From assembly GCA_963924565.1 (NCBI GenBank), contig OZ004615.1, positions 16,492,001 to 16,556,000 of the forward strand: a stretch of DNA of 64,000 nucleotides. The letters are read 5' to 3'. The translations under genes were made by a program, and so were the position numbers. Source of the DNA: Ascidiella aspersa. Lineage: Eukaryota. This document shows, piece after piece, positions 163 through 48,546 of the stretch. The notes below the pieces were generated by a model, which had not been told where the DNA came from, made no database searches, and worked only from the letters and a program-made list of their open reading frames with translations. Numbering within the stretch: the stretch's first letter is position 1; every line of letters starts with the position of its first letter.

Positions 163-551
163 AAGCAACGCTGTGGCAATGGGTACTACTGCGGGAGCGA
201 TTGGTAGTATTATAACCCCGTTTATCATCGCGCTTCAATCCAACATCTTCTGGCTTCCCAACGTTATCTTCGGCGTTGTTACCCTTTTCACCGCCGTCCT
301 GGCCTTTCGCTTTCCTGAAACCAATCACATCGACATGTTGGAGAACTTAGCGGACGCTGAGCTTTTTTACGCAGGAAAATCACTGCAGACAAATGGGTAA
401 GACATCGTGGCGTATTTTCCACTTTTGCAAGTGTTACATTCAACTACAGGAGTACGCGTTGTTTCGATTTATTTTTAGCAATACGGAAGGAAAAGAAAAC
501 GAGGCATTCTGGGAAAGCAGCAAAGAAATTGCGACTGCGACCAAGCTGTAG
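163..551 (+). CDS. SLC22-family organic ion transporter, last two exons (163-396, 479-551); rest of gene lies upstream of the window
   Basis: Exon reads (R)SNAVAMGTTAGAIGSIITPF...FRFPETNH, matching SLC22 TM11-12 and the PET motif. GT donor at 397, AG acceptor at 477-478. Last exon GNTEGKENEAFWESSKEIATATKL* ends in a class-I PDZ-type T-K-L. AATAAA at 708-713. Confidence 0.85.
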
Positions 552-2479
552 TGAACACTATTTTTATTTGTGTAACTTGTTAATTGTGTATTTTCTTATA
601 ACCTAACGCCAGCATCTTTAATTTAATTATTTGCTTCATAATAAGCAATACGTCTTCAATGCACACAAATTTAACAGTTTCTTCCATATTGTACAGAAGA
701 AATATACAATAAAGGTATATTAAATATAAAAAATGTATTTGTAAAAAGTATGTTCTATACTGATAAAGTTATATATAGCCAAATGTTTTATTGTTTTGTT
801 GTAAGCGTCATTCACATGTTTTATCTCATCACATATCAAGCACGCCAAACATTTTGATAAGGCTTTTTGGGGCTACCCTGTTACCATATTTTTTCCAAAG
901 TATTACCCATATTGCAGGGGTGGCCAGCCAAGCCAGAGACCAAGAGCCACGTTTTTACTTGATTAACCGCAACAAGTCACAAACGTTACGCATGTTAATA
1001 ACAGGAATTAATAACACCCTGTTCATTATTCACTGACACACATGTCTTTTCTCGGCTAGATTTTAATAATTATTGAGGTTGCACACTTACAATGTTATAA
1101 GTATACATAAGCGACTATATAGTTATTGACAATGGAACAAATAAATGTCATAATGCTGTCAAAGTTACTAAAATATATTGACTTGGCTGTATAAAAAGTT
1201 ATAGGATCTAATCATGGATGGATCCCGTTATTTTGTTCGAGAAGCCTGGTAAAAAATAAGTCTTGTACACAAATCCGGAACGGAAATCAAACATATAAAG
1301 TATTCTAATACTTTTGCAATACACATTGGGCTCAAACCATAGCAAATATTTTTTACAAGGTGGCGCAGCACGGAATTGTGGATGACGCAAGGCAATACAA
1401 TACCTATAGAATGGAATTAGATGCACTTTTTCATTGATTTTTTCCACCTTAAACCCACAATACATGATAAGAAAATATTCGACCATTTGCTACTACACTT
1501 TTTCAATTTACAGCTAGCTTCCTTATCAGTTTCGAATTGGTAATGCGCATGCGCACGTCGGACTTGGGACTCGTAGTCTTGAGTTTTATGTAGTCTTACT
1601 TAAGTCCCGAAATTTTATGAAATTTTAAGCTGAACAAGGTAGGCTATCACTGTGTGGTAATAAAGCGAGATAAGTCAAGTCGCTTTTACAACCAAGAATC
1701 TCTAGAATTTATATTTGTTATCTGTAGAAACTGTTTCTATTTTTGTTTTTCACGATCTTGCAATAGTAAACAAAGGTCTGAAAAATTTATTACGGTGTCG
1801 AATCACATGTTGGTTTAGACCAGGGGTCGCACTGTATTATTTACAACAGAAAAGCGATAACTAAAATTGGGCAGAAATGAGAAAACATACTAAAATTTTG
1901 AATTTTGATGATGTTTTCAATTAGGCTTGATTTCACTCTAAGGTGTGTGTGTCAAACGTAATTAATTATTAGGTGCCAACAACCTGATAAGATGAGAAAT
2001 AAAGCGTGAAAGGTTAGGTGCAAAAGTCGAGACGCGATATGATTTACATGAGTGAGAAAGAAGGAGGAAAGCGAAAACACGCGTATACCAAACGATAAAG
2101 CTGAGAAACAATAACGCACACACAAACGATAAAATCGGTGCAACATTATATAGCTATACAAAGTGTGACTCACCAAGAGACTGTGTGTTTTTCAAAAAAA
2201 TGTATTAGGAATTGACCACTAACATTGGAAAAAATCTGATTGACATTCAGCCTAATTTAATCCAAAAATGCATAATTTTTTTCCAAAAAAGGGCTAAGAA
2301 GTAGCCTTCAAATGTATAAACAACAGACGTTTCCCAAAAAATCCCCGCTTTTGCTGTTCAAAATTTTAGTCTAACGGCTTCTATTTAAACGCTTAAAGTA
2401 AATAATAGAAGTTGTAAGATCACAAATTTAACGAATATTAAACTGATGCAATTTTCTTATACCAAACCATTTTGCAAAG

Positions 2480-5400
2480 TTAGCTGCGAATTTCCAGCTT
2501 AATGTCGCACAGTGTTGGCGCCACGACAGTAAAAAAGATCTCTTTGTCGAGTGGTGGCAAATCCGCGTGGGCACAACGAACAGTAAACCTTTGGAGTAAC
2601 TTCACAAAAAAGATGAAGATTTCAACCCGAGCCAAGCTCTCGCCAAGGCAAAACCGTGGACCGATGGAAAACGGAATAATCTTGTTAGAGAAAATGAACT
2701 TTCCGGTGTCGTCTACGTGTCTGTTCGGATTAAACTTTTCCGGATCGGGCCAGGTCTCTGGATCCATATGCACCCCGTACAAATTTGCAGTAACCTATGA
2801 AGTGGACAATACATATGGTAAAAAAATAATCTGCATTCATTTTGGCCTTTATGACTTAGATTCTTAGAAGAAACCTCAACTACGTAATGTAAACAAGTCG
2901 TTTTGAAATGACTTAAGTCCAAGTCAAGTCTTTTTGAATAAAAAAACAAGTCAAGTCCCAGTCCAAGTCATCGGTTGCCCAAGTCAAGTCCCAGTCAAGT
3001 TATAGTAAGATCAAGTCAACTTCAAGTCAAGTCTCAAAAGTAAACCTTTAAACTATTAAAACTGACTAACTCCTCCGATTATAAGCAATAGCATATAAGT
3101 AAAGAATAACATGAACGCAACATTTAGCAAGCAAATTGTTTTACGTGCAACTATTAGGATGAATAACCCAATTTTATAAATATTTAATGAAAACAATTTA
3201 TAAATATTTAACCCAAGTCATTGGTCCAAATGACTTAAGTCATTAAGTCAAGTCATTAGCCCAAACGATTTAAGTCAATTAAAGTCATTTGAAAACAGTG
3301 ACTTAAGTGCACTTAAGTCAAGCCATTAGCTTATGTCATTACAACACTGAATATAACCATGGTAATTGTTAATATACGCAGCTCAGACTGACACCATGGA
3401 AACTCACAGTGGTGCCTTTCGGCAGTACAAAGCCTTTCAATGTGACTTGTTCCGAAGTGCGGTGGTGTAAGGCTAACGGGAGAAGAGTCTTTATTCTCAT
3501 CACTTCTTGAATAAAGGCGCACGTAACCGGCATGTCACGTCTTTTCGACATCGTAGGAATACCTGACATTCCTGGTAAAAAATATATGGCAATTTAATGC
3601 ATATATTTTGTGTAGCCTACTTTGCTTTAGTTAAAAAACATTACAAAAAAATAATTTTGATTAAAGATTCAGGGAATCAGACAAGATTTTTTTGCGAGAT
3701 ATGTATACATTAGGTTTAGAGACAATCTACCAATTACATTTGAGTTCTAAAAAGTTTGGGTTTTGTGGATCCTTTCCGAGAACAAACTATTTTAGTATGT
3801 TATAATGAATCACGAGCGATGGACCGTTCCTTAAACGTTGTAGCCTACAGTAAAACCAATATGGCCACTTTTATAGATAAATACAAGTAACAAAGTTGGC
3901 TTTATGTAACAGTTAAGATTAACGTTCGAGGTGATTGTAAATTCCTTATTATTTATTAATAAGTCGCCATTTTTCTGATTTCAACGGTAGCAAACTTAAA
4001 ATTAACTGCTTTACCCAAAATTTGATCGATTTCTTTGTTGATCTGTTTCTGGTAATCCGGATAATTCAAGTAGTAAACAAACAACCAAGTCAAGGTTGTG
4101 CTGGTTGTGTCTGACCCACCCAATAAAAAATCTTGACAGAGCGTTATTAACTGTACATCCTACAAACAAAATACTGTTTAAAGCTCTACATTTCACATAA
4201 CGCTGTGCTTTTAAACTGTGCTTCGTGGCGCCCTGGTCGTGGTTTGAGGGCGTCGCACAATATTTCCTTTTCTTATCTCTACTTAATTGCAGTAATACAA
4301 TTCTTGCAAAATTTTTGTACTCTGGCATATGTGTTTGAACAAATTCTTATGAAAAAAACGGCAGCAATCGCTTTTGATTTTGTGAAACATACAGATAAAT
4401 TGCCTTTTCTGTAAAATGTAAATGAAATTTAGTGAAATTGATATCGCTTGTGTTCTGTCGCAAGTCAAGCAAACGTCTCCAAAGGCCTCGATCAAAAGGT
4501 TTGAGAACACTGTGCACATCAAACATGGATGGCCGTTTTTACTTTAAGCAATGGAGTTGCGAAAACTATTGATTGTATAATTATAAAGATTTACGAATAT
4601 CCCAGATAGGTTTCTAATATATCAAAAGTGTAGGTGTGCTGCCTCACAGACTTATTGCCAATGAAAATCGTATGAATTGATGTTGTTGTATAAAAGTTTT
4701 CAAACACAACAGGGTAAAATATAGCAATTTCTATTCAGTTGTAAAAAGCCAATACAATGCTTCATTGGTATTTCACTGCTGCTTACTGAAAATCCTGACT
4801 GTTCGGTTGTTTTACTCTTTCGTTGCTCATACAAATATGCGTCGATAAAATCGTTCACATTGTCGGGATCAAACTGTTTCCGATGCTCTTCAACTCTATC
4901 TCTCAAAAAATCTGTAAATTTTAAAGTTGTTATCGTGATATTGGCAAGCATGCTTATTAGGCCTGATTGTTAGGGGGGAAACGTTTTCGCTTAGTTATAC
5001 TAAAAACACTATATAACCTTGTTTGAACACTTGGGGATTGACCTATCAAATATTTATACTGCTTACCCCTTAACGTAGATTTAGTGTCAAGATTGAACTT
5101 ATATTGTTTGATATAAACAAAGGGTGGAATTTTCCGCCGTTTGTATTGTGATCCGCCGTTTAGGGCTTTAAAGGGGTTTGTTTAATAAACTGTAACATTT
5201 TTAGTCACATAGTACAATTTCGCATTATTGCTGCGCACTTGAATATGAAAGTAAATGGTACGGTTCCGGGTTAGAAGGAACGTGTTATTTTGTTCAGTAT
5301 AGAGCGGAGAGGATAAACAATACTTTACAGAACTAATCGATAACATAAAAATATGTCTTTTCGATCTTATAACATAACAATTTGTTAATCAATTTTGTTT

Positions 5401-8400
5401 TAATGACTTAAAGTCAATGACTTGACTTAAGTGCACTTAAGTCACTGCTTTCAAATGACTTGACTTGTCATAAGTCTTTTAGACAAATTACTTGACTTAG
5501 GCTTAATTTATTGAGTTAAATGACTTGGGTTGAAATAAAAGGATTTTATTTACCATTTTAGTATAAAATTGAGTTTTGCACATAAAACGATTAGATTCCT
5601 ACATGTTGTTTTTTTGGAATTTTTTAGTTGAATTATTATTGCTTATAATCGTACGAGTTTACCTATTATAATGGTTTATCGTTTTATTATTGTTAGTGGT
5701 TTGACTCGGAGACGACTTGCTGTAATAATGACTTGACTGGGACTGGACTTGGGCAACTGATGACTTGGACTGGGAATTGAATTGTTATTTTTGGATGACT
5801 TGACTTGGACTTAAGTTATTTCACAAATGACTCGACTGGGACTTAACTTTACAACACTGTTGTAGACATTAGCTGTCACATGTATTTACTCCTAAGTCGC
5901 AACGTCAGTTACTATATTTAAAAAAAATATGTAAACTGAAGATTATTCGAAAGACTTTCCCTATTTTTTACCATATAATTTTTGAAAATTAGCCTAACGT
6001 TCTGTTGGAATCTATACCTGTTATGTACAGGAGTCTTTTATCAAATATCCGAACAGCTTCTGCAAATGGTGGGATTCGTGCGAGAAAACTCAAACCAAAT
6101 ATCATCCTTAATCTTTTTGCGTATTTTCGATCAGAAAATCTGAAAAAACAAAGGAATATTGCTCGAACAAAAACACAATAAATTGAATGATGTCGACGTA
6201 CAGCATTTCCACCGTATTGACTACATTGTTGAACTCCTTATCAGCATATTCGTACCGCCTTCCCAATGTGGTTTGCAAAATCACGTTCGACGTCAGCAAA
6301 AACAAGTATTTCTTTAAAAATAATCATTATTATATTTCTTTTTTATGTGTTTTATGATACGATGTATCCATTAATGACGGATTTCAGCAGATACCCTATG
6401 TAAAGTGATAGTATTCGTACTGGTTGGACAAGTGGTTGTAAAATGAGGAGAACCTGGCTCCCTAAGGAAGGAACTTTTAACTTTGTGGAACAATTTGTTT
6501 ACCAGAGAGGAATCGGAAAGAAAATTCCGTTTTTATATATGCAATAAAAATGCTTCTCTGTAGTGAATGCTGTTGTACAATGTAAAGACCATAATCATAT
6601 ATTGTTTCTTCACAGTAGTCTAACGGCAACAATTTATGTATAGTCTAGCGCAGTGCTCTTCAACCTACAACTTATAAATTAAAAAATAAAAAAAAATAAT
6701 ACCTTCTCCTTCGCATTTCACACAAATAGAAAATGGTTTTGTCATGCACTATATCTATATTCTTACCTAAACAGTATAGTTGTATAATTTTATGGTTTCA
6801 ACTTCTGAATTCTATTTCGTTTAAACGTTCAATGTCTTCCGATCCTCTATACTCTAAAAAGCCTTTTCTTAACTTTTCTTGGTAGCCTACATTTCTAGTT
6901 CGAATTAACTCCTAATTTGAAGCTAGCCTAATAGCCTATTGATTCTTTATTGTCTTGTGTCGGTAACGTTATTCTTCGCAAATTGATACTTTTTTAGTTT
7001 ATTGGCAGCATCCTTATCCCTTAGTTACTTAATTGTTACGAGATTTGCTGTTTAAATTTATCAACTTTTTTACGGTGACGGCATAGGTTAGGTAACGTGA
7101 CGCGAACATTATAGTATAAAATGAATAACTAGAGCTTACACACCAATATTCTACAATTTTTGTTACAAAAACTTGGCTTTACACAGAAAAACCTATATTT
7201 TGAATAAAAAATAATTTATGGCACTTACGAAATTCTATATAGCATAGGCTTAAAGTTGAATGAAAAAATGTTTTATATGCTACAGATTTTGAAATGCACA
7301 GCAGAAAAATTCACACTTTTAACCAAAATATTTCAATTACTTTACTTGATTACCTTTAAGTTTATAACGTCACCAGGTTTATGTGTGTTCTTCAAATATT
7401 CCACCAATTTATCCCCTTCCTCGTTAATTTGCATTTCCAACTCTTTCTTTCCAAGGCCCTTCCTACCGAAATTGCAATTAAATTGAATGTATTGGAAATT
7501 AAATAGTTAACTAATGGCATATCATACTAAAACACACAATACTGAAGGTATTGCATTACTTATATATACAGATTTTACATTATTATAGTGTTTAAAACCT
7601 TGACTCAAGTTAAGTCTTTTGACTTATGAGTTATGACTTTGACCATAAACTGACAAGTTTTCCATTTTTTATTTTTTATAGTTTAACGTTTATTATTATG
7701 TGATTGAATTGACTTGAAGTTAACTCGATCCAATAAACGATTGAACTTGTTATTTTTGTTGCAAATGGTTTGACTTAAACTAAAGTTGTTTTGCAAATAA
7801 CTTGAATGGGAAGAAAGGCATTTTAAAACGACTTATTTGTCATATTATAAGATTAAGAAACTGTCAAATCCCTAACTATTCTGTTCAAACAGTTGTTCAA
7901 TGACATATTTTATGTGTAAGAAGTAGGCCTACAGTATATTGTACAACGTTTAAACCCACAAATGAAGGTACTATAACATAATGATAATCACCCTTACACA
8001 CATCAATTTATATAAAAACCGAAAGCACAGGTTATTGAGATAAGTTACATGGTAATTTCACATAATGGCCTAACGCTTTACGCGACAATTAACAACTTTA
8101 TAATAACTTCCTAATTAAAAGTTAATACTTTGCATAAATCTATGATCACAGACATTTTCTACAGTGCATAATATAACAACTATAGATGTGCTTGTTTACA
8201 TTAGCGCAAGCGATATAGCATTTTGTATTCCTTGAATAAACCGTGAAGTTGTGCAAACTTTATCCAACTAGTATATTAAGGGTTGAAATTGAATTAAATT
8301 TTGCAGGAGCCGGATGTGTCTAATACCACCCCGCACACGCCAACGAAATTACACACGATCGAAATGCCGAACGCGTCTGTAAATTATGGTCCTTTTAAAC

Positions 8401-9500
8401 TGTTTTTCAATGATTTAACCTGCCTAAGGATAAAACGGATAGTGATCCATTTTACCACACAATTTGTTAGTCATATTGAATGATTATGCTTTTGGCAAGT
8501 TGTTAGTTTTTTTATCCACAATAATCGGTCCCTGTAAAATACAATTATTTAGTGATCTTTTGTTTTGTCATTTCGAACAAATATCATTAATCGATTTAAA
8601 TGCTTTCCTAACAGGGCTTGGAAGCCCTGTTAAAGAGCATTAGCTCCGGCTCCAGGTTTAAACCAGACCGATTTCTGTTGCTCACTTATGAGACTGAATT
8701 ATCTCCGACAGCACTGACAAAATATTGCCAATTAAATAAGAGAAACTCTTGAGCGTATTTTACTGTTTCAAATAGCATAATACTCACTCTCGTAGATATT
8801 TTAAAGCAAAATGCTTTTGTGTTTTGAAATCATCATCATATTTTTTGCAAGCAATACCACATTGATCTGCCAATCTGCAGAACAGGTACGTCCATGGACG
8901 GTCAGAAAACATGTTTCCTTGCTTTACGAAAGCCTAAACAATATTTAGTACAGTAAAATCCCAATATATAACTGAAAAGTGTTCACAAACATTTTTCGAA
9001 CTGCACTTCGTGTTACGTTCTCTTATTAATGCCAGAAAAACGGGATTATTGTTTTCCTAAGGCGCAAGGAAAACGATTTGATGAACCTAATGGCAAAGTA
9101 ACATTTTTATGGTAGCTTTAGTAAAACTTGAAAAAACTACCTTCATTTTTCATGTGAGAACAACTCTTAATGAATTTCGAATTATAGTGTTTGTCATAAA
9201 AATTACCTTGTTAATAACTTCAAACGTGTTTAAAACGACAACTTTTTTCATTCCCAAGCGCACTGACATGATAGGTCCATATTTTTCAAGACTCCACTTT
9301 TTCAAAACCTTTGCAGGAGATTTTGACAAGTATGGCAGCACCCCAACAACTGGAAAGCCGATTGGTCCAGGTGGGAATTTAACCTCTGTCTGTGACCGCC
9401 AGTATATATACAGCAAACATGCCACAAAGCTAAGATAAACCCAACTATTTCGGTAAGAAACCAAGTCAACCAGGCCTTGTAAAATTGCGTGCGACTCCAT
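2480..9500 (-). CDS. Cytochrome P450, CYP2 clan, copy A (intact, 9 exons, 509 aa)
   Basis: Exons 9500-9207, 8933-8788, 7462-7354, 6311-6202, 6139-6018, 4911-4787, 4159-4015, 3571-3408 and 2794-2480 total 1530 nt in frame, all GT-AG. N-terminal anchor plus PPGP; DFIDAYL; I-helix GGSDTT; K-helix EVMR; heme motif FSIGPRFCLG. Confidence 0.93.
2895..3348. mobile_element. CAAGT-rich MITE-like element in CYP intron 8
   Basis: Sub-terminal arrays of CAAGT/AAGTC, ending TTACAACACTG. The same family occurs inverted at ~5400-5858, as relics at ~7590-7840, ~38905-39000, ~48697-48830 and ~57015-57155, and in the duplicated unit. Confidence 0.7.
5400..5858. mobile_element. CAAGT/GACTT-rich MITE-like element (opposite orientation) in CYP intron 5
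   Basis: GACTT arrays that are the reverse complement of 2895-3348; terminus TTACAACACTG. Confidence 0.7.
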
Positions 9501-10421
9501 TCTTTGGGCTTTAGGTAACTGGTACTGTCAGCAGAAAAGTGTTTCTGTTGTCAACTTTGTTGATTAAACTTCACCTTCTCTTTTTGCCAAACGTATGTCT
9601 AACGTGAAACGAGAAAACGCTGAAATTCAGACTTATCACATATCATGTTACGGGCGCTGTATGGTGTTTGTCGTACGTAACTATTTCCTGTACGTGATCA
9701 AGTGTAACGGCTGAGCTGTTTTTGTGCAGTAGAGCCGAGCTGTTTTTGTGCAGTAGAGCCGTGCCGTGCACCCTTTTTTCACTTGGGGCACATCAAGGTA
9801 GCTAAAGCAATTCAGTTGCAAAGCTCCAAACATATGTCATTCGACAATAAACTAAATGATTAAATGTCCAAGGCACTTAAGAACAATACCGTTTTCAAGG
9901 CACTTAAGAACAATACCTTAAATGCTGCGAAGGTGCCAACAATTTGAAGTATTTGAAACATTGATCTTATGATTTTGCGGTTCTTCATGGAATATATTAG
10001 GCCCTTAAAAATCCTGACAGCACTAGTCTTCTGGTGGTTTAGCTTGACGAAAAAATTAAAATTTTAATACTTGACTTCCGACGATTTAACGCAAGATCAC
10101 ACGAGATCCAACTACAGGATCGGAGGCCAAATGTGGACCGCAATTTTTTTTTCTTATTTTTTAGGCCACTAAAGAAACCAAGAATTATTTTCAAATGGCT
10201 CGCTATCAAAGAACCGGACCACACTTTGCTGCATTTGTTTCTTTTTTACTTCGCCTATGGTGTAAGTGCCCCGCAAACTTTGCCAACTTTTAACATGTAA
10301 ACTAATTTTCTTTCACGCTTTGCTAAAATATTCTTTGATTTTATAGTATATTATGCATTATGGGGTAGCCAACCTGTTGATCGCCGCATAATACCTGCTC
10401 GATCGCGTCGAAAATGTCTTA

Positions 10422-10629
10422 CGTCATTACAGTAGCTGTCGCACCGCGGTAGCTGTCGCACAGCGTCGTGACAGTAGCTGTAGCACCGCGTCATTACAGT
10501 AGCTGTAGCACCGCGGTAGCTGTCGGCTGTCGCACAGCGTCATTACAGTAGCTGGAGCACCGCGTCATTACAGTAGCTGTAGCACCCCGGTAGCTGTCGT
10601 ACAGCGTCATTACAGTAGCTGTCGCACAG
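10422..10629. repeat. GC-rich compound minisatellite upstream of CYP copy A
   Basis: Alternating modules CGTCATTACAGTAGCTGT(C/A)GCAC(C/A)G and CGGTAGCTGTCGCACAG, preceded by a hAT-like terminus GGGGTAGCCAACC at ~10362. Confidence 0.9.
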
Positions 10630-11645
10630 ATTGAAATGACCAATTGTTGTCTGGACAAGCCTAACAAGCATGCAAAACGTAACAAATTAACCTTGATCGC
10701 AATCAAACATACTTTGCCTACACCAGCATTATGGCAAGCCAATATTTTCAGCATTGAGGAACTGTGTTATACTGTGTTCTATTTTTACCTTTTCTGTGTA
10801 TCCATCCTCCACAGCCTAGATAAGCGCAATGTAAGCTTTTATCTGTTTGTTCGAACTATTAGGGTGAGATCACATAGCCTAGTGCATAATTTTATGCGAC
10901 CAATGAGTCAAGTACAAGGTTTTGCAAATTAGAAAAGAAAACAAATAAACGAATTCGTGCAACTTAGGTTTAGTTGCATAATTGCACACCATGCAGTTTG
11001 TTCAAGGTAAATTCTGAAAATATTTTCCATGCCTCCCACCCCCTCAATAACGGCTCTAAAAAATGTCTTCCTAATCTATATTTATTTCAATATTATTTTT
11101 AAACCTTCAATTTTATACCTGCAGTAACTAAACCCCTTACTATTTTGTTCAAGTTACTTTACGAGTTTACGTGAACTTAATTTTCCGTTGTTAGGTCGTA
11201 ATTACACATTTTCGGGGTAGTGATGTGAATGAATACGGCTTAATCAGTGAGTTTATTTGTTTTTTCACTACATCGAAACAGTACTTAAAAATGTTAAAGT
11301 TTTGACAATTTGAGTATATGACTCTTAATTAACCATCTGCAACAGGGTTCTGCGATCATCAAGCTTGTCGAGTACTTTTTCGAAGCTTGCTTAAAAATAA
11401 TTCTACGCACACCGTAAATCTATCACGTGTGATTAGTAAAGCACATAGTCTTTATATTGACGCTGTCTTATTACAAAATTTGAAAAACTGAAAATCAAAC
11501 ATACAAACAGACTTTCGTAGAGTGTTCCTTGTGTGAACACAGAGCTTTTAAAATACTTTTCCATTAGGAATCTAAATTGTTAACAAATAAGGTTGACGGT
11601 GCGATACAAGACAAATACTTGTTAAATCAAGACGAAAAAAATGCA

Positions 11646-12268
11646 TTAGTCATAAGAAAAACGTATATTTGTTCCTTGAAGTTTGGATTGAAAAATTTCG
11701 TCAATTTCTTTGGGTTGTTCACTGCTAAAATAATTCTTCCAATCGCCGACTTTTCCTATATAAAAGAATTATAAGGTGTTTAATTTTGTTTTACCTTTTA
11801 TCGGCAAAGGACATCGTGAAACTATTGTAAAATATTTAAAAAAATTTTAGTCATGCAATTCCTAAACTTGTGCGCACTGATTACTCTCATTAAAGATTGT
11901 TCCTTCGAGTAAAAAACATAAAGATCTCATAAAGCTACTGGTTAAAAATTATTTTAATATTTTAAGTTCATTTAAAGGACGTTTTTTTGTGTAGTTGTAC
12001 CACTTATAATAATTCTTTAACCATTTTATAACATAAAACCACCATGGTTAAAATATTTGAAAATTCTTTTAGCGAAAAGTATTTCTTTAACGCGGAGAAG
12101 AGAACGCATTCGCGGTATAAATTTTAGCAGCAATAAAGGTTATTAAAATGAAGTCGGAAGGTTTCACATAACCCAAGATAACACTACAATTAGTACATAG
12201 CCCGAACAATAGCAAAATATTTAATGACAGAAATCGTTTTGTCGGCAATATTTTTTTTATCGGCAAAT

Positions 12269-12299
<31 letters not shown>

Positions 12300-33515: not shown

Positions 33516-33559
33516 CACAGCTGTAGTACAATGTTACAAAATAACGCTAAAACTGGTGT

Positions 33560-36242: not shown

Positions 36243-36891
36243 CTAATAGCAGTGGGAGTGTAAAAAAAATGGTAGTGTGGTTTCAGCAGCACGATTCTTT
36301 AATCTGACAAGAACCAGCGTTCCAAAACAACCAATTTACAAGCTTGGGTCGCAAACATGAAATAAAGCATTTGCCAAGGCTACGCTACAAAATCAGGACA
36401 AACATGTTCGTTTTATGAAGAATATTTCCCTTTTTTATGCAGAACAACAACCAAATTGACACAAACCAGAGGGGTATGGCCAGGCAATGACCAACAGTTT
36501 TATTGGAGGTTCTATAAGTTAGGTTATGAATCTAAAAGAGATGTAATTTTAGGCAGTCGTTTATGTATAAGTGCAATTATTCGCCAGTTTTTCTTTCAAA
36601 AATAATATGTAGGTTTCAATGCAGTGGATGGAACTTTTAACGCAATGGTCTTTAGTCAAACATAAATTGATGTTGTGCACAATCATAAAGTATGCTTTCA
36701 GGTGGGGCCCGTAAAAGTCGATGTAATATTTTGGTTCTCCGTTGTATAACTAAGAAATGAATAACGATTGATTAAAGGGTTGTAGTATTACAATGATCGC
36801 ATGTTATTAAGTTGTACGTTTTTGAAAAATGTTAGCTTTTCTTTTAAATAATATATACCAAACAAATCCCATTGTATGACCACGGTATAAC

Positions 36892-37698
36892 CAGGGCTGC
36901 GAAGTCGGTTAAAAATAACCAGAGTCCGACTCCCGCCAAATATGCGATTTCGTCCTGAGACCGGCTCAGACTGTACCCAATATTCCGCCAATTTACGTAA
37001 CTAAATAAGGTGGATATTCAGCAACCCCCTTTAGAGGTGTCATATAATTCATCCACTCACAATATATGGTTGGAAAGTATCCCCCATATGCTATTCCGCC
37101 TTTACAATTGACAGGCCATATCAGTTTCAAAATTCAATACTGCGCATGCGGACGTCGGACTTTGGTCTAGGATAGTGGTTCTCAACCGCCGGTCCGCCAA
37201 ATATATTACAATCTTAAATCTCAAGGACAAAATGCATGATGTCCATCAAATTTAGAACTTCGCCAGCTTCGTAATTTGCAACATTGTGACGTAACATAGA
37301 GTTAATGGTCTACTTTGGACTTTATCGTAAGACACAACGCAAGTGTTGTGTCCAACTGTTTAAAAGTAGGCTACAGATCGTTTAAGTCTTAAATTTTAGG
37401 ACCAGTTGTATGTGAAAAACTTTAATAGAACCACGTATAACACGTATGATATCAAAGAGACAGCAGCAAATTGCTCATTGAATTTAAGTTTCCATTCTTT
37501 GCTTTTAAGTTGGATACTTTTGTCATATTTGCATTTTGGGTTGATTTTGATCTTTGAAGGTCCACCGGTCCGCAAAATTTGTTTTGAAATTTTACCGGTC
37601 CGTAAGATAAAAAAGGTTGAGAACCACTGGTCTAGGGTACTTTTAAGTGATCTTACTCGAGTCCCAAGTCCCGAATCCGAATGCGCATAACCGCCCTA
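36892..37698. mobile_element. GAGTCC-family hAT MITE interrupted by a nested insertion
   Basis: Starts CAGGGCTGCGAAGTCGGTTAAAAATA as at 14102. Sequence either side of 37173-37629 rejoins into the 14295-14345 sequence. Confidence 0.8.
37173..37629. mobile_element. Nested Charlie-like hAT MITE
   Basis: TIRs (T/C)AGTGGTTCTCAACC...GGTTGAGAACCACTG; 8-bp TSD GTCTAGG(A/G). Confidence 0.9.
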
Positions 37699-39698
37699 GC
37701 AAAATATACAACAATCGGACACAACGTCTATTTTTTTACCTTCGCATTACAAAGGTAATGTTAATTTTCCTCGGAAGTCAATATTCTAAAAAAATGTAAT
37801 ACAAACGATTCTCATTCTATTAGCTCACCAAGACTATATTCTAACGGTTTTCCATCTTCAAGCCAGAATGAAACACAGAAAACACTATATCCATATACAG
37901 ACCCTATAGTGAATAACCCTGCGTATTGTTGCTTGAGCTACGCAAGATAATAAACCTAATATGCTACGAAAGACCATAAAAACGTAAAGAAATATGAATG
38001 TAATAGGCTTTTTTATGAATGCAAGACGTTGACAACTCTTTTGGTAAATTAATAACGATAAGTTCCTTTGCTATTTGCTTTCTTGGATATTCATTCATGC
38101 TTCTATTGTCGTTCTAGTTATGTTTTTTGGGATGTTGTATCGAACCTTGTTTGATGGTTGCAATTGAAAAAAAGGATGCGCAACACAGAACTAGAACAAA
38201 GTTTAACAACTTAAAGTGCAACGTTTAATATCCCTGTATGTATAGCAGGTCAGATGTTGTTAAACGTTAGTCCTGATAACCAGTAGCAATCACACTTTTG
38301 TTACAAAAAGTAATAAATTATTAGTTTTCTAAAATTAAAGTAAATCACCATACTCAGATCGCCCATAAACAGGGAGAGCAGAAAAAGGTCCATTTAAAAT
38401 AAAGCCTACAAAAGTTTATTATTTAAAAGAGCCTTGTTATAACCGCTAATCATTTGATAGGCTGGTATTAATATTCATTCAAAAATTCATAAATGAAGAA
38501 ACTTATCACTGCAAATCAATATCTGCTAAATGTTTAAGGATGATGAGCGGTGCCACATTCCTTCAATGACAAGGCAGTGTGTCTCAAGATATGAGTCGGC
38601 GACCCAATTTGATTCGCCATATTATTTGCTTTGGTCGCCGACTGCAGTTATTCACATGGTTATATTTTTCGAGATTAATTCTGAGTAAGAGTTCTCCAAA
38701 ATTTAAGAAAATTGCGAAAGCAACACGAAGACTGGGCTCATATTTAATAAATTTGCTTATATTATTGCTATTGTCTTCATTGTGTTTTGTTAATTTTAGG
38801 CTTATAAAAGTATAGTTTAGACTGTAGAGGATTGGGTCGCCAAAGCTTCGCTGTTATGCTTACGCTTGGTATTTGGGTCAACGCAAAAAAGGTTGAGAAA
38901 CAACGATTTAAGTGCACTCAAGTTCCTGTTTGAAATGACTTCTTTTGGGAAAAATTACTTAAATTGAACACAAGTCATTTACGCAAATGACTTAAATCGA
39001 GGTGCCTTCATCGAAAACAGTTGAGAAAATTAGTTTTAAACCAATTATATTAGTCTTAAACCAAATATAAAATTTATGAAAAGTTGTTACCTTCCCATGT
39101 GCTTCGGCTTTAAGTGTTTTTATGCGAAATTGTGCTTAGAATGTAACGTGTTCGACAATTTTACATGTTTAACATTAATTTTTAGTGCCAATGCCTTGCC
39201 CTCGATTTCTCGAGTCATTTTTAAAAGACTTCTTAGCGACACTGATGAGTAGTCCGAGTAGTGTTAATCAAAATCAGTAGTATTAAATTAATATCGCATG
39301 GATTGTTTAACAAAGGTGACTGTTTTAGGGGCAATATAACTAAAGTAACGTATTCAATTTGAGCCCAAAATATGTTCTACTTGTTATTTCAAACGTTGAA
39401 TTTTAAAGCGGCTTATTACTATTTTGTGTAAGCTATTTTACCAAACATAATTACATTGTTGTTATTTAAAGAGAACTATAAACAAGAAAAAAGCATAAAA
39501 CTGGAAATTGTAAAATAAAAGTTAATATTTTTGGAAGTCCTAACATAATTTTGTTTATCGCATAAAATATTTTTACTAAATTTAAAAAAAATACACTCTG
39601 AAGTGTACAGTGTGGATTGAGATCCGAATCCGGACGATATTTTAAAAGGGGGTTCGTCACTCGCTTTGACAGCTGGTAAATAATGAAAACCTGTATAC

Positions 39699-39922
39699 AG
39701 AAGCCTTTTTAATTTCAGAGCATGCAATCGATTCATCGAACGCACCAGATTAACCAGTTTAGTAAAAATAAACTCGATTCGTGACATCAGGCACGTAGAC
39801 GGGCAACAATATGCTTGGGAGGGCGTGCTGGGGTGTTTGGCAGTCAATATAGTTTCCTGGCTGGAAGTTAGTTGCTGGCAAATCGCGGATGTGTGCTGGC
39901 TTCGGCCTTTGCCTGTGGCCAT
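39699..39922 (-). CDS. Possible coding exon of an unidentified gene
   Basis: GC-richer open frame MATGKGRSQ...LKRLLYT with a possible GT donor. A phase-compatible mini-exon at 39134-39091 reads AQFRIKTLKAEAHGK. No recognisable domain. Confidence 0.3.
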
Positions 39923-40439
39923 ATGGACGTCGGTCTGCGGGACTTGAGCTAACTCGTTTTTGATTCACTATTTATCATCCCTACATTCGCTTCGCACGAA
40001 AACTATTTGTAAAACGTGTGTGCGCAGATTTTGTGTTCGTCGTTTGCTTCTCTATACAATTTTTTTTATATACTACTTTTCTATTAATGAATTTTAAAGC
40101 AAAAGAGGTCGCGTAAATCGACATCATTTTGATTAAGACGTTTCAAAACCTGCTTGTTTCATCACCACTTAATGTCAATTTTTTGATTGTTTTGCAAACT
40201 TCTGTAAAGGTGTCTTTTTTTTTTGCACAGATACTAGGAATGCAAATAAATATATTATAAATTCAGTGGTCATGTAACTGGTCGGCTTATCTATCCATGG
40301 GATTGAATGCGATTGCTAAAGATGAGCACAATTATATGACACATAAATTAGGAAAAACCCAACACGTTAGGATATGGCCTTTTGTTGAAACACGAGTGCA
40401 ATTTATACGAATGGCTAAAATGTGTTTACTTGACAAACC

Positions 40440-43400
40440 TGTAAAGGCTTTTTCCAATGCAGAATCTGATTGAAGTTTTCTGGTGTAATGTATTCGCTCG
40501 ATGCACTGTAAATAAATATATTCTATTAATACTAGAAAGAAAAAAAAAATGTACAAATATGTTTAGTTTATTTCACATTTAAACCAAACTATATATTTAT
40601 GAGCAATACCTTATAAACCTAAAAATAAAATCGAGATCCAAGTTTTCTGCTTCACGGCTATTTTCAAGTAACTTTTTAAATTCTTCCAGGTTCATCTTTT
40701 GACTGGAAGACTCTTTGACAATTTTTAGTCCCCTAAACATAAACATTTTAACTATCAGTAAAAAAACTTTTTTAAACAAAAACATTAGAAATTTAAACAA
40801 AGACATTAGGTTTACAAACTATCAGTAGTCTGTAGTGCAAAACCGTATAGAATAACTACTACAACTACTTTTTCAAGGCATCTTCTACAAATTGAAATTG
40901 CTCTGGAAAAAACTCGACGCTTTCCGCTTCTTCAGACTCTCCTGCTTCAAGAATATCTTCATCTTCATACAAGCCGCCTCCATGGAAATCTTCATTTAGT
41001 GTGTAGACATAACCCATTCTTTTAAAAAACACACAATAAAAACACAAAAAAATCACAAACGTAATAGAAACAGTTATATTTTAGTTACGAAAGTTACTTA
41101 AACATGTTTAAGCAAAATAGACTGTTTTAAAACTAAAAATACATTGCAAAAAAAAACCTTGAAAATTTTCTCAATGAAGGGTCAGGAATGCTCTCAACTT
41201 CATCCAGCGACAAAACTCCGTTCATATTCACATCAAGGAGAAGAAAAGCATTGGTGATGTCACCATTTATAACCCTGATCAGCTTCTTAAACCTATAGTT
41301 TTAATGTCTAGATGTCATACTTACTCCATTGTGCAACAATAATATATTTATTTTCTGCGGATCAGCTAATGAAAATAAGCACCACTATAGCCAACACCAT
41401 TAAGGTAAAACTGACCTAAAAAAAGGTTTTAGTAGAAGTAAAAATTTCAATTGCATAAATGATTGCAAAAAAACATTCAACATTTAGTTTTTTTTTGTCT
41501 AAAACGCCCTTGAAACTGAAAAGATGTCCTTGAAAGGATAAACAAGTAGAAAATAAAATACTAGTCTGGACTGCGAATAAACTTGCATTTGCTTTGTGAC
41601 AGCTCAAAAAAGAATAGCTTGACGGGCATATGTAAAGTACACTACAACATATAAGACCTAACAGCAAGAGGACAGCATAGAGCCATTAACGACAATTAAA
41701 AGGTAAAAATTACAGTAGACCTTTTGCCATTGAGAATTGGTTAGAGCGCCCCCGGTTAAGAACCACTGATTTAGAAGCTTTTCATGTGAGGTGTTTTTTA
41801 TTAAAATAGAATGATCAATGGACAGATATCAAAAGGTCTTGTCAACTTAACAAACAAATATATATACTCATTGAATAGGGTTTGGGAACTTACTGTGGAT
41901 AAAGCAATTTGTTGTTCTTTCCATGCTTTCTTACAATTGTTTTTAAAAATTGTTTAGCATTTTTAATATCAGAAAAATAGTCATTTAATCTTGGGTTGAA
42001 GGCCGCTGATGCATTTGTCTTTTCTGGATTTATTCCCATTTGAGATCTGAAATGTTTATAGATATTAACAACTAATTTAAAGAAGAAATATGTGAATAAT
42101 AAAAAGCTTTATACTAAAACTTGATTGTAAGGTTTATTAAAAACTATTGATGACTTTCATATATGTATTTATTTGTTATCATCAATTGTATTACACAGAA
42201 CTAATGTAGCAGATTGGAGCCACATACTTCGTAGGACCATGGGGGTCATCTGTGTTCCGACAGTAATCTTTCCAAGTTTCTAACCCTAACGAGGTCATCT
42301 CTTCTATAGTGGCTTTGCCATCATTGTTTGAGTCAACGTCCAGAAAAAATTTCCTGGACCAATTAAAAAAAATCTAGTCATGATGTTTCTTAAATTTTAT
42401 GTAATATGTATGTTGTGTTACGATAAATTAATAAGAGCAGTCCCGAAGGATTTGGATTATAGTAAATAACTTAAAAAATCAACAGTAAATCTGTGCAGTA
42501 GTTCCTTTCAATATTTTTGTTATTGCAAAATAGCGCTCAAAAGATTATTCAGGTATTAAAAAAACAACTCACAAGACTATTTAAGATGACTTACTTTATT
42601 ACGTTAGGCCGAGACATAATTTCTTCACCTTTTATGGCATATAGGCTGTACAAAAACTCAGTCCATGTAAATGATTTTATTCCAATACTGATAAAATTGT
42701 CTAATACATCTTTTCTAATATTAACAGGATTCTGGTAGCCCATATCCACAGTCTCTTGGCCCTGTTGCAAATGTTAAAGATTTAAAACTTTTTGCATCTT
42801 AATTCACAACGCTTTATAAACCAATACATAAACAATCAGAGCGATTATTTTTTGACTTGTCAAAAAAAGTCAAAATTTTGTCAAAATTTACCTGTTAGAT
42901 CAAAATTTGTCAAAATTTTTAAAATCAAAATCGAATAAAAATGCACATAAATCGTCTAAAAATAAAAAAATAACTATAGTCAGCTTTTTAAAACTGTTCT
43001 TTTAGTTGTTTTGAAAATTATCGTTCAATTTTATCAAAAAATTTTAGTTTTGAGTTATGCTCAAAGTCATTTTAACCGTATTATATCTTTATTAGAGCAA
43101 TATACAATATAAAAAATGCATGATTAACGAGGCCTAGGTTATTTATATCAATGTATTTTTAACAGGTCAAAAATTTGTCAAAATAAACTATTTTTAAGGT
43201 CCAAATTTGTCCAAATTTCAATTTTTCAGGTCAAAATTTTCTATTTTTTAGGTCAAAAAATAATCGCCCTACTTATGAGTGTATATTTAAAAAAATATTG
43301 TCATAAAGATTTTATTCTCGCACCTTTTCGTAAACCCAGTACACAAATACATCATCAAGACTCATATACTTTTCCAAATCAACATCTTTACAATCATCAT

Positions 43401-46253
43401 CGTTGAAAGAATCTCTTGGGTAAAACAAATAGGTAGCTGACACTGACCTATTGTATGATCGAACCTAGTTATATACATAAAGGTTTTAAGAATCATGAAA
43501 TGACTTAAGTCAATAATATTAGTAAATTTGGGTATGTAAGGTGATTTAATCAATGTAAAAATGTTAACTTGCTATTTTTTGTGTTTGCTTAGAATTTGAC
43601 ACATTCACTAAAAATGTTTTTTTACATAGAATTTGTTTAAAATAACTTAACTTGCCACTAATTTATGTACGACTGGACTGGCTTGTTTACACTAGTTTTT
43701 TATTACATATTAAAATTGAAGCATAGTTGCCCAGAAAGAAAATAACATTTAATACAACACTAAAGTTCGAGATGCATCAGGCTTTTATGTGATAGAAGTG
43801 GACTCAATAGCAACATTGCTAAACATTAGATAAACACTTTAGGGAGAAACTAACCTGGTGTAAATATTGCGGAGGCAAGTAAAGACAATCTCCTCCATAC
43901 AATGTCACATATTCCCAGGGTAACTGGGTAAGCTCTGGATTCTCAGCCAAATTTATACCATCTACATAAAGATGTGAAAATCCAGAACCCTTTTGGTAAA
44001 TAAATATTATTAAATTATTTTTTGCTTATTTAAGGGTTTCCGTAATAATTCTAATCAAATTTGGCAATATACGGTTACCCCTAAAATCATCCAAATTCTC
44101 ATCCAAACACTACTCCTTTTATATCATTGCAATAATGTTTTAAAAAAGAATATATATCCTAAATGAATTGGGTTTTATTATAATTGGCTAAAAAGCTTTT
44201 TTCTCATGCATGCAAAGTCAGTACTTTTTGTATTATATAATATTGTGGTGCTTGAATGTAATGTTTATCTGATTTTATGAATATATGCTATGTGCACTGC
44301 TTTCATTGAAATGAAAACAAAACATCATACTCATAACTAAAAAAAAATAAATTAGGATGTTACCGACAACAGGTAAAGTAACTGAATGATAAACAAGGTA
44401 AAATATTTTATTGTATATAATAGCAATACAGCCAGTATACTGAAGAAGCCAATATTTGTACAGTTACAACCTGTCCACGATTATTCATGACCATGTCAAC
44501 ATTAGGCTTGTTGTTAGGGTGAATCAATACCCAATCCTTTCTTCCAGAAACAACACAATGAAGAATGTTGTCCGCATCATAATGTAACATTGATCTAAAA
44601 TAATTCTTATTTCAAAAACTGAAACCTAAACGCTTCTACTTTATTTGCATATTTATTTATATATATACAATATACATACTACCTTGTTCCATGTGTACCA
44701 ATCCACAAATTTAACTCTTGCAGGTTTTCCCGAAAGGTGCTACATTTCAGTGGTTTTGGTACCTTTGAACAAAATGTTGTCTCAAAAAATGTTAATATTA
44801 AAAAATGGAACATATGATACACTACCCCAATGTATTAACTTACTTTTAAATCCTTACGCATGGCATTCGGAAGAATTGTTACAACATACCAGTTGTGTAA
44901 CTTATATTGCTCCAGGAAACCAGCAATGGTCATTCGTTTGGGTTCGGATTTTCTAAGAAAACCACATCAGAAATAATGCCAATACTTTTGTGTATTTATA
45001 ACTTAGAATACCAAGCTAAGCATTTTTATTTACTACAGTACATTGTATTTTATGTTTTACACTGCATCATATAACATCACTTTTCAATTTTTTTTTCTTT
45101 GGAAACTCTGTCAAAACCACAAGGCTGACAGTCAAGGCTGAGAGGCAATATTTTTCTTTACTGCAATAACTGCAGAAAAAGAGTTATATATACAGCTACA
45201 AAGCTCATAGGCTGTAATAAGCAAAATCCTAGTAACAGGTACAATTCGCTGGTTGGCTAGTCAGGCCTGTCATTTATACTGTGAAATAGAAGCTGTTTGA
45301 CAGAATTAAATATGAAAATTGTTGAATTTTGTTTACGTACTTAAATTTGTATTATGCAATACAATACATCAATATATAAAAATAGTTCATTGGAATTTTT
45401 ACAACATTTCTAGATAAATATTGATTAAAACAATAATTTATTATTTAACAAATAAAAAATGTACACAAAGAAGTCAAAAAGCAAACATAGGTATTTTGTA
45501 CTACATACATTATACCATAAAAATAATTTATTTTATATCCAAGCATTCACAATTGCATTTTGCAAAAGAAAATAAGCATAATAGATACCTGTCTTCAGTT
45601 TTCTTTTCAACTAAAACCTCTTGGTCTCCGTATTCTTTGGCAAGATACTCATCACTTGTCCAGTTATCAATTGCAGGTGACCCATTCAAAAGACCACGGT
45701 ACACAGCTGGTCTATCAAAAACATTTATTTATTTATAAATATATGTTTAGATATAATAGCCAATACCCAGCATTAAACCACTGATAAGTCTACAGTCAAT
45801 TTGAACCCAAAAAATAATTACTAAACAGGCCAAAACAAGTTTTGTTAAACATGCCAAACCTAATTTACAACAAATATAAACACTCACAATTACTCTAAAT
45901 TTATTTAAAAACATTTTGCTTGGTTTTGATAGCTGGGTAAAAATCATAAACATGGATTAAATAAAAAATAACGATACTTAAACTAACCTGTAAAGTTTAA
46001 CATGTTCATCCCATAACTTTCTTGGAGTTGGTGCCTCAAAATACTCTGGAATTTGACCAATCGGGGGACTTTGCATTCCAATTTCTTCATTATGCCCTAA
46101 TGGATCTGGGTTAACCGTTTCCCCAGGAAAGTTAAGTTTGGGAAACTTTATGTGATAAGCTGGGTCCCTCCGTACAATTTCAGCATGGCTTATTACATCT
46201 GCATTTGCTAATGTTGCCAACAGCACAGTAACAAGGAAAAGTACATCAAGCAT
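40440..46253 (-). CDS. Secretory-pathway JmjC/cupin-8 2-oxoglutarate/Fe(II) oxygenase with C-terminal EF-hands (>=13 exons; 3' end unresolved)
   Basis: Phase-consistent exons 46253-45988, 45711-45589, 44952-44844, 44762-44683, 44594-44471, 43989-43855, 43464-43324, 42761-42595, 42353-42228, 42046-41894, 41292-41158, 41018-40869, 40732-40610 and probably 40505-40440. Signal peptide MLDVLFLVTVLLATLANA; PAVYRG...W..EYL; NLWIG; HYD; GRKDW; GDCLYLP..YLHQV; EF loops DSNNDGKATIEE and DVNMNGVLSLDE. Confidence 0.88.
42837..43271. mobile_element. TIR-bounded MITE-like element in JmjC intron
   Basis: CAGAGCGATTATTTTTTGAC...GTCAAAAAATAATCGCCCT inverted termini with internal GTCAAAA arrays. No clear TSD. 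Confidence 0.65.
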
Positions 46254-46949
46254 GTTTTACTGATACACAAATATCCTGAAATGTAGAAAAATCAATGCTC
46301 ATTGTTGCAGAAAAGATAAAGTTTTATCATTAAAAACATTTATCACATTAGGCCTCAAAACATGTACTTCTAATTATTATTAAACGAGTTCATAGTGCAT
46401 ATTATTAAATATTTAATACAGGTGTTAGCAAGGAAAACAACATATTAAAGAGGTGTAAACGTCATGAAGTTACTAATGTTAGGCACAAACATAAAAGATT
46501 TAAATATTTAACACATATCTACTTAAAAATTTAACTAAGCTTTTTTATGCTAACAAGCTTAATAAAACAACAACTATTACTAAAGAAAACTTAAAGAGAT
46601 AATTTTAATGTTTCTGTAATCTCTACACTCTGTACACCCCTTTATTATTTTCATATTGCACAAGAAGCTGATGTAGGCCTATATTGTTTATTCCCAAAGC
46701 AAAATTAAAAAATATATATTTTACATTATTAGCAAAATAGAATTTTAGGTATAAACTTCTAAAGTAAAATAAACAATGGTTTTCCTTTAGGCTCAAATCA
46801 ACTTTTTTTTAAATCATCATTTTTGATAAAATGGAAAATCTTTAGGTATGATAAACGTCTAAACACCTAAAGGTATCACGATGTAACCAATTCCCAAATA
46901 TGAATTAAACGCTAAAAAATCACATTGTGCCATCAAGTAACAAATAATC

Positions 46950-47400
46950 CTAACAGCCGCCTCCTACTTGCTTGAAACCAAACAAACTATCAAGTCGTTC
47001 TCGTGCTTTCTTTATCGCAGCTTCTTGTCAGGCAATAGCAGGCCAGCTGCGACTTCCCAGTCAGACCATTCAGAAATGACTTCCGGAAGGACGGCTCAAA
47101 CTTACCAAGATCTTTGAGTAGGTCGCGAGCGTCTGATTAGGCATGGTTGATCGTATAATCGTAGCTGGTTGAGTGGAAAAAACTCGTATTTCACAAAAGT
47201 GATGTTTTGGGGCAACAGACGACAGATTTAAGTTGTTTACTACACTATATAAAACACGATTTTTTAAATCCGTATTTTTCGTAAATATTTCAAAAACAAA
47301 CATTTAATTCCACTGATCTCTGTGGAACGTATACTTTCATATACGCATAAATAGGCCGTTCAAATCTTTACTTTTTACGTAACAAATCGATAGAGCGCCA
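46950..47400. promoter_or_regulatory. Probable bidirectional promoter between the JmjC gene and the methyltransferase
   Basis: Head-to-head genes with ATGs ~1.4 kb apart. A locally CpG-richer stretch contains the palindromic ETS-type CTTCCGGAAG (~47080-47089). Confidence 0.45.
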
Positions 47401-47640
47401 AATCTTTAGCGCTGTTTTACAATACAGTGGTTTAAAATATGGGGTTTTCCCTTTTTAATATTTCAGCCTTACACAACATCCCCGGCTGTTTCGTCAGCTG
47501 TACAAACTGGACTGTTATATCTCAAATTACCTTGTTTTATCTAGTGACATTACTCGGAAATGTTATTAAACTTGTAGAAATTTTATACTGTCAGTCGCGA
47601 AGTATATTCGTAGCCTACTGTCTTACCTAAATTTTACCAA

Positions 47641-48546
47641 ATGATTCGACTATTTGAGGGCGGTGCTGTCGCTGAAGCATATGCGTTATTCAGACCTCAC
47701 ACACCACCGGAGGTTGCTACCATTGCAATGAAATACTTTAATTCAAGATTCAATAGAGAAACAGATGTCAAACAAGGACTACTTCTAGACGTTGGGTGTG
47801 GAGGTGGCCAGTCAACTTCAATTTTTTCCAAGTATTTCAGTAACATAATTGGTTTAGATCCTAGTGCATGTCAGATTGATATGGCATTAAAGGAAAATAT
47901 GCATAACAATATTACCTTTAAGGTTGCCACAGCGGAAAACTTGCCTGTTAAAAACGAAACTGTTAACATGGTGGCATGCGGACAATCTGTACATTGGTTT
48001 GACTTTTCTGCATTTTTTCGGGAATGCAACAGAGTCCTTTTGCCAAATGGCTGCTTGATTCTGCATGGTTACGATACTCCATCTATTTTTCCTGTTGAAA
48101 TCAGATCTAACCGAAGTAAAAGTGATTTGAAAGCATCTGCGACTGAACTCCTTATGAAGATGTACAACACCTGTGATTTTAACCCCAGGAGAAAACATAT
48201 TGATGATCATTATTCTGAGATTTTTGATTTAGTTTCGAGCAACCACAAAACAAAAGACGAAACCATAGAAATGAAAAAGTTTTGTACATTGCACGACTTC
48301 ATATGTTATTTAACCACTTGGTCAGGATACAGGTCTTACATGGAGAAAGTCCAGGATAAATTAAGGGCAACTCATGAAAATGTAACAGAGGAAATGGTTT
48401 TAAAACATGATATCTTGCATCAGTTCCTCAAAAACCTGCAGACAGAGTGGGAAATACAAGACTTGAATCCAAAAGCTGTTAATGTTTGTGTTGCCTGGAA
48501 CTTATTTATGATTTTATCAGAAAGACCGAACCCGATTGACAAATGA
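47641..48546 (+). CDS. Class I SAM-dependent methyltransferase (Methyltransf_11-like), intronless CDS, 301 aa
   Basis: Uninterrupted ORF; RLFEG..Y..FRP N-terminus; motif I LLDVGCGGGQST; GLDPS; AENLP; GQSVHWFD; RVLLPNG. Confidence 0.93.
   Translation: MIRLFEGGAVAEAYALFRPHTPPEVATIAMKYFNSRFNRETDVKQGLLLDVGCGGGQSTSIFSKYFSNIIGLDPSACQIDMALKENMHNNITFKVATAENLPVKNETVNMVACGQSVHWFDFSAFFRECNRVLLPNGCLILHGYDTPSIFPVEIRSNRSKSDLKASATELLMKMYNTCDFNPRRKHIDDHYSEIFDLVSSNHKTKDETIEMKKFCTLHDFICYLTTWSGYRSYMEKVQDKLRATHENVTEEMVLKHDILHQFLKNLQTEWEIQDLNPKAVNVCVAWNLFMILSERPNPIDK

Follow-up and report, generated by a model that had tools for sequence, protein, structure and literature searches.

Five unrelated genes side by side in Ascidiella aspersa: separate functions, or a pathway around a tandemly duplicated P450?

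A 64,000-nucleotide stretch of the Ascidiella aspersa genome (C9:16492001-16556000 of a 308.6-Mb assembly with nine large contigs), referred to here as the window, carries with its upstream flank five intact genes of unrelated families: an SLC22 transporter, a cytochrome P450 (CYP), a cytosolic sulfotransferase (SULT), a JmjC oxygenase and an S-adenosylmethionine (SAM) methyltransferase. The reading preferred here, with a probability of about one half, is that these genes act separately and do not form one pathway of hydroxylation, sulfation and export, and that the P450 is written twice in a frameshifted tandem copy. A first-pass annotation of this DNA had proposed such a co-regulated pathway. 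Its gene families and the SLC22-CYP-SULT adjacency were borne out by spliced models, assembled by script from GT-AG boundaries, and by Pfam. The pathway itself was not: the SLC22 lacks the residues typical of anion transporters, the SULT has almost no reads in the one RNA library, and elsewhere in the genome neither SULT nor SLC22 genes are enriched near P450s.

The order along the locus is SLC22 (+), CYP (-), SULT (-), JmjC (-) and methyltransferase (+), and Pfam and exon frames reveal no further recognisable gene separating them. Four of these, the CYP, SULT, methyltransferase and SLC22, are non-homologous candidate pathway genes inside 58 kb. The SLC22 model is intact, with 546 amino acids in 13 exons, and starts 9.1 kb upstream of the window. 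In window coordinates the features are:

163..400, + strand: last exon of the SLC22; 12 earlier exons lie upstream, with the ATG at L001:890; from PDB matches and 3' untranslated region (UTR) RNA reads, on the duplicate copy.
1..13363, preceded by a further 872 bases outside the window: copy A of the 14.2-kb duplicate, from self-alignment.
2480..9500, - strand: CYP2-clan P450 copy A, intact; 9 exons, 509 amino acids, with heme-Cys, ExxR and I-helix motifs in the model.
11646..12643, edges approximate, - strand: orphan last two SULT exons inside copy A, from sequence match.
13364..27571: copy B of the duplicate, with 1.22% substitutions relative to A and a junction without an N gap.
13661..14634, edges approximate, + strand: orphan last two SLC22 exons inside copy B, from sequence match.
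16719..23723, - strand: the CYP of copy B, with an extra base in exon 6 that shifts the reading frame.
25864..32924, - strand: cytosolic sulfotransferase, intact; 7 exons, 329 amino acids, with PAPS-binding motifs.
35987..42373, - strand: further coding-like exons that probably complete the JmjC gene on its 3' side; two EF-hand-like, one acidic, the last ending RDEL.
42603..46253, - strand: JMJD5-like JmjC (cupin_8) core; 8 exons, a signal-peptide-like N terminus and HxD...H iron ligands.
46900..47300: CpG-richer stretch between the divergent JmjC and methyltransferase genes, a likely shared promoter.
47641..48546, + strand: intronless SAM methyltransferase, DDB_G0268948-like; 301 amino acids in one exon, Methyltransf_11 E 3e-20.

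Copy A of the P450, and only that copy, has the membrane anchor, heme cysteine, ExxR motif and I-helix threonine of a CYP2-clan enzyme. Its named matches are CYP2J/2U/2D/2C/2W, CYP33, CYP17 and a copepod CYP3075, all grouped in clan 2; no named tunicate match appeared among the 30 matches to its last exon. The gene belongs to a large subfamily that has expanded in this genome (46 last-exon matches, 53-100% identity); like the other P450s here, roughly 140 in all, it would oxidise lipophilic small molecules. The SULT has the motifs of PF00685 in an intact frame, which we take to be the binding sites for 3'-phosphoadenosine-5'-phosphosulfate (PAPS) and the catalytic histidine. It is 28-30% identical to six retrieved SULTs that are relatives of another paralogue (the profile came from a poor alignment). 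Its exon 4 weakly favours phenol SULT1A enzymes as best PDB matches, with SULT2A8 lower, and the enzyme may sulfate a small hydroxyl or amine acceptor.

The SLC22 exons match best to URAT1, OAT1, OCT1 and OCTN2 in the PDB, placing the gene within the SLC22 family; one SLC22 exon used as a query matched only itself. Lysine 393 and arginine 477 of URAT1, in transmembrane helices 8 (TM8) and 11 (TM11), are the two cationic residues conserved in organic anion transporters (PMC9521027, PMC12780140). Here, these positions are occupied by tyrosine and alanine. With neither cationic residue present the protein lacks the signature of the organic anion transporter branch, and the OCT aspartate is likewise missing. 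Export of a sulfate ester is therefore less likely, and the transporter may instead move a neutral or zwitterionic solute.

The JmjC core of 379 amino acids is 58% identical to Ciona XP_078489343.1 over 370 amino acids, and its nearest solved structures, searched with the Ciona orthologue, are JMJD5. It resembles JMJD5/KDM8 in the cupin_8 fold and the HxD...H ligands, but differs in its N terminus, where a hydrophobic, signal-peptide-like stretch was judged by eye, and in a probable EF-hand/RDEL tail; JMJD5 itself is nuclear or cytosolic. Because it is JMJD5-like and has this hydrophobic start, the protein is likely luminal and protein-directed. These same features set it apart from small-molecule 2-oxoglutarate (2OG) oxygenases, and the earlier view of the JmjC gene as the weakest cluster member was sound. 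It may hydroxylate or clip proteins in the secretory pathway. Frames at 33000-42600 gave only weak EF-hand matches. The RDEL-ending last exon can be joined to the core in an open frame, though not uniquely (994 solutions), and one Ciona JmjC model also extends into an EF-hand; the exons at 35987..42373 thus probably belong to this gene.

The methyltransferase is 43% identical to Ciona XP_002121710 and 38% to Styela XP_039254017. Its best PDB matches are a type-11 methyltransferase and then trans-aconitate 3-methyltransferase (PDB 3g5t), with which, as with the DDB_G0268948-like proteins of Ciona and Styela, it shares the Methyltransf_11 fold. The papers found to name this family are, judged by title, omics listings. 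Together with the JmjC gene it would form an older head-to-head pair. The Ciona records of both genes lie on one 8,965,682-bp contig and so share a chromosome, which does not imply adjacency and is weak evidence of conserved linkage; in ten orthologue records looked up, no contig was common to P450 and methyltransferase matches.

The second P450 of the first-pass annotation, which had counted two CYP2-clan genes, stands as to clan but not as to number: there is one gene and a 14.2-kb tandem duplicate. The duplicate is head-to-tail (window -872..13363 = 13363..27571), with 172 substitutions in 14,136 aligned bases (1.22%) and 30 gaps. The duplicated unit comprises the whole CYP together with only the last two exons of the SLC22 and of the SULT. 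One extra base in exon 6 gives the model of CYP copy B 10 internal stops. Two distinct P450 paralogues are ruled out by this near-identity and frameshift. The junction at 13363 is free of N and shows microhomology of one base at most, and no joint from the end of copy B back to its start was found among the best 15 of 659 joints. Read depth was taken on 13364-33363 in hand-chosen repeat-free bins (10, 9 and 9 inside the copy, 4 outside), and the ratio of copy B to the unique flank was 0.89 in sample X6 and 1.02 in X2, which is single-copy level. For the allele check, 40 of 587 differences were displayed and 5 were dropped as high-depth repeats or as outside the copy; the other samples carried the copy-A letter at 31 of the 35 usable differences. 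The extra base is missing from the X1 and X2 contigs. Contigs from other samples diverge from the reference by roughly 0.2-2%, so the distance between the two copies is of the size seen between alleles. Either the assembled animal alone carries the duplicate, or the assembly has set two haplotypes in tandem. The duplicate P450s do not make a fixed enzyme pair.

Repeats of other kinds were also seen. Two P450 introns (2896-3346 and 5396-5832) hold a dispersed high-copy repeat in opposite orientations. At C1:37491364-37533691, the last exons of four P450s, spaced by about 14 kb and scoring almost equally, form another near-identical tandem P450 repeat. Near the end of the window, 59342-63284 and 63282 to L009:3224 form a 3,943-base tandem repeat that is 100% identical and is either very recent or an assembly product. 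A 200-base element occurs twice (49208-49409 and 51248-51449, 96.6% identical) and contains motifs that we take to be CRE-like and E-box-like.

Expression was read as sense-strand depth from one library (X7, tissue unknown, 6% read). Depth was 3.8 in the SLC22 3' UTR bin, which lies in the duplicate copy. Five P450 exon bins clear of repeats had 0.33-1.93, and three SULT exon bins of the same kind had 0, 0 and 0.03. The SULT is nearly without reads where the SLC22 and CYP have them, a weak observation counting against tight co-regulation.

Family catalogues were compiled across the genome and are lower bounds. The P450s number 147 positions in 62 loci (143 of 149 last-exon matches, after one unplaced match and five second fragments were dropped, plus 4), the SULTs 53 positions in 24 loci (from 69 matches), the methyltransferase family 32 positions in 20 loci (from 33 matches), and the SLC22s 34 positions in 19 loci including the window gene (from 81 matches), a list that missed at least three genes. 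With the window left out, 1 of 23 SULT loci and 0 of 18 SLC22 loci lie within 50 kb of a P450, the latter becoming 1 of 19 when a C4 gene is added; both are at chance level. Among the matches listed, the control families gave 1/31 (fucosyltransferase, FUT), 3/36 (fibrinogen-domain, FBG) and 2/99 (GPCR). For the SDR test family, 18 of 270 candidates were scored, in 4 loci. A search of the whole genome for the UDP-glucuronosyltransferase family returned no candidate, which does not in itself show absence from the genome. On the preferred reading of the locus the SULT, SLC22 and JmjC genes are probably chance neighbours.

The catalogues also contained other gatherings of these families. At C1:29.45-30.17 Mb, SULT, intronless SLC22 and P450 arrays follow one another within 0.7 Mb, the last array holding a methyltransferase. 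Two SLC22 genes stand beside three SULT genes at C4:30.83-30.90 Mb, with a Sec1-family exon between and no P450. A P450 of the window's subfamily lies about 14 kb from a distant Sulfotransfer_1 match at C7:12.65-12.67 Mb. At C3:32.43-32.46 Mb, three intronless DSBA-fold genes, presumably GST-kappa-like, are interleaved with Methyltransf_31 exons beside a fucosyltransferase.

Several observations weigh against separate action of the five genes. Random placement of the loci predicts only 0.001 P450 loci per genome with a SULT as well as an SLC22 no more than 30 kb away. The first-pass annotation had allowed that adjacency might be expected by chance; for broader phase I/II/III classes, with locus counts assumed and not counted, 0.05-0.17 are expected per genome. 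The trio is unusual, yet not beyond chance for a scan of many genomes. Invertebrate SLC22s may bind anions through residues other than those of URAT1, and the expression argument comes from that single, partly read library. As to the duplicate, the depth ratio was 1.43 in sample X1, which fits a one-haplotype duplicate or a contig artefact, and the shorter form at the extra base was carried by only 2 of 7 X6 reads and 0 of 2 X7 reads. Finally, 5 of the 19 methyltransferase loci outside the window lie within 50 kb of a P450, against 0.44 expected chromosome-wide and 0.97 with 1-Mb shifts (corrected over 14 thresholds, P <1e-4 chromosome-wide and 0.003 local). One of these, on C4 (5.904-5.943 Mb), has a few-intron P450, a long terminal repeat (LTR) element, an SLC22 and the methyltransferase in that order, and at C3:6.75 Mb an SLC22 lies about 9 kb from another family member.

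If the five genes do act separately, the proximity of methyltransferases to P450s is probably a soft bias, in which intronless copies would be kept where P450-expressing tissues open chromatin, and not substrate channelling. Another explanation is a selected bundle, in which the P450 would oxidise a lipid or alkaloid precursor, the methyltransferase would methylate the product, the SULT may sulfate it and the SLC22 would export it, such modules having been assembled independently at several loci. This is possible but doubtful. It draws on the excess just described, which rises to 5 of 14 when intact loci within 60 kb are taken (corrected local P 0.0007) and is accompanied by flat controls; nor is the methyltransferase family enriched near SULT, FUT, FBG or GPCR genes. 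The five other pairs are on C1 (inside an array), C8 (about 8 kb), and C2, C4 and C5 (35-45 kb). In a quick tree, with 8 short fragments left out, the near-P450 methyltransferases are spread over several clades, and the P450s beside them are only 35-55% identical to each other. Over six pairs there is no co-divergence (Mantel r 0.06, P 0.38; low power). Given this spread over clades and the lack of correspondence with their P450s, the pairs seem to have come together independently, and descent from a single ancestral pair by co-duplication is not supported. The C4 run and an elongase array 3.5 kb from another member also speak for a bundle. By analogy with trans-aconitate methyltransferase, the second-best PDB match, the reaction could be carboxyl methylation. 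In sponge bundles, methyltransferase and P450 domains rank among those that most often occur together (PMC12833800). Against a bundle, the pattern was spotted in the same lists later used for testing, correction for 22 pair tests brings the local P to about 0.07, and Fisher's combination gives 0.18 under the local null. Within 25 kb of a P450 there are only 2 of the 19 loci (P 0.033), and in the window itself the JmjC and SULT genes separate the P450 from the methyltransferase.

That everything is chance, with the methyltransferase-P450 excess an artefact of multiple testing and incomplete catalogues, is unlikely. The families are large, the broad-class expectation is appreciable on its assumed counts, the catalogues are incomplete, and a control pair, FUT-SULT, also reached a corrected P of 0.025. 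Set against this, the chromosome-wide corrected P stays below 0.002 after 22 tests, and all five neighbouring P450s are multi-exon genes. Least probable by far is a cluster devoted to a sulfated polyhydroxysterol of the type of SAAF, the sperm attractant that the first-pass annotation mentioned as an example. In its favour, the P450 and SULT genes are neighbours with the same orientation, and SAAF is an egg-derived sulfated steroid in Ciona (PMC8835908, PMC10668965). Nothing at the locus points there: the P450 is of a large expanded subfamily, the SULT leans weakly to phenol enzymes, the SLC22 is without anion residues, and no sterol reductase or dehydrogenase was seen among the best 144 of 1,643 frames around the locus.

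The surroundings of the pairs are mixed. Unrelated genes lie inside the C2 pair (Sec15) and the C5 pair (ADP-ribosylglycohydrolase, AMP-binding fragment, kringle-trypsin, Ras); an SLC22 between the C5 pair was one weak, unconfirmed match and was set aside. The C4 retroelement carries reverse transcriptase, RNase H and integrase, and a further frame in it weakly resembles a rhabdovirus glycoprotein. At 9 further intact methyltransferase loci, 50-60 kb each, neither a P450 nor a cytosolic SULT was found; these loci held one SLC22, an elongase array, an MFS_2 transporter and a Rieske oxidoreductase, and five had nothing of that sort. The elongases are four intronless fatty-acid elongase genes at C8:22.137-22.176 Mb, and 17 kb past them comes a frame with a weak Sulfotransfer_3 match. 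None of seven fucosyltransferase control regions held a P450, SULT or SLC22, and 2 of the 7 had small-molecule enzymes within 25 kb. Around the five-gene run itself there is an upstream proline-rich gene without a Pfam match and, downstream, CAP-domain, CFAP77 and fucosyltransferase genes. The + strand frames at 54062-54844 and 59469-59852 are hydrophobic, match nothing in Pfam and are possibly exons of small membrane proteins. Over a region reaching 40 kb upstream and 30 kb downstream, the same 144 frames, the best of 1,643 by codon score, included no scaffold-forming enzyme, though short exons can escape such a scan.

Clusters of unrelated pathway genes had been called uncommon in animals, which is fair, yet several clusters and looser bundles are now described in sponges, molluscs and corals (PMC12833800, PMC11869996, PMC11784711), and all validated cases rest on cross-species conservation or assays. 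A scaffold-forming enzyme marks classical clusters and is not required for bundles; one sponge study found its type I terpene synthases not to be clustered with modifying genes (PMC13483135). Like the sponge oro bundle (PMC12833800), the locus gathers non-homologous, primary-metabolism-like enzymes in one neighbourhood with unrelated genes interspersed, and its families recall the P450, methyltransferase and Fe/2OG domains that often co-occur in sponge bundles. Unlike oro, which was defined by cross-species conservation and enzyme assays, it is known from its genes alone, and its JmjC is of a protein-modifying type. In the mollusc bur-ox cluster (PMC11869996) a P450 likewise stands beside a methyltransferase-fold gene, and in octocoral terpene cyclase-P450 clusters (PMC11784711) a tandem-duplicated P450 stands beside a partner enzyme. 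Both have a scaffold-forming core, a nonribosomal peptide synthetase (NRPS) and a terpene cyclase respectively, whereas none was found here and the second P450 is frameshifted. The CYP, SULT and SLC22 families are also the phase I, II and III families of the chemical defensome (PMC8131381), although what that source describes is a functional network with gene counts, and here the linkage is physical. A tunicate P450-methyltransferase or P450-SULT-SLC22 cluster was not found in open main texts; the SynBGC supplements may bear on this point.

A weaker form of the cluster proposal has gained from these results, in the methyltransferase family near P450s genome-wide and in the second CYP-SLC22-methyltransferase run, even as the full pathway has not. 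One could tentatively, and against the odds, picture core-less chemistry modules built repeatedly, with intronless DDB_G0268948-like methyltransferases retained next to a different P450 at each of six loci, every locus on its own chromosome, and accompanied by an SLC22 at two of them (the C9 window and C4). The window, with its additional SULT, would then be the fullest of them, and the family would serve as a genomic signpost to tailoring or detoxification pathways encoded by ascidians. Natural products abound in these animals, the animal-encoded genes behind them are largely unknown, and with about 140 P450s in this genome, ranking them by sequence alone is impossible. If the pairing fails in other ascidians, the locus is a caution that large families and a near-identical duplicate can mimic a cluster. 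If it holds, six P450s would be singled out, and an uncharacterised methyltransferase family would gain its first testable substrates.

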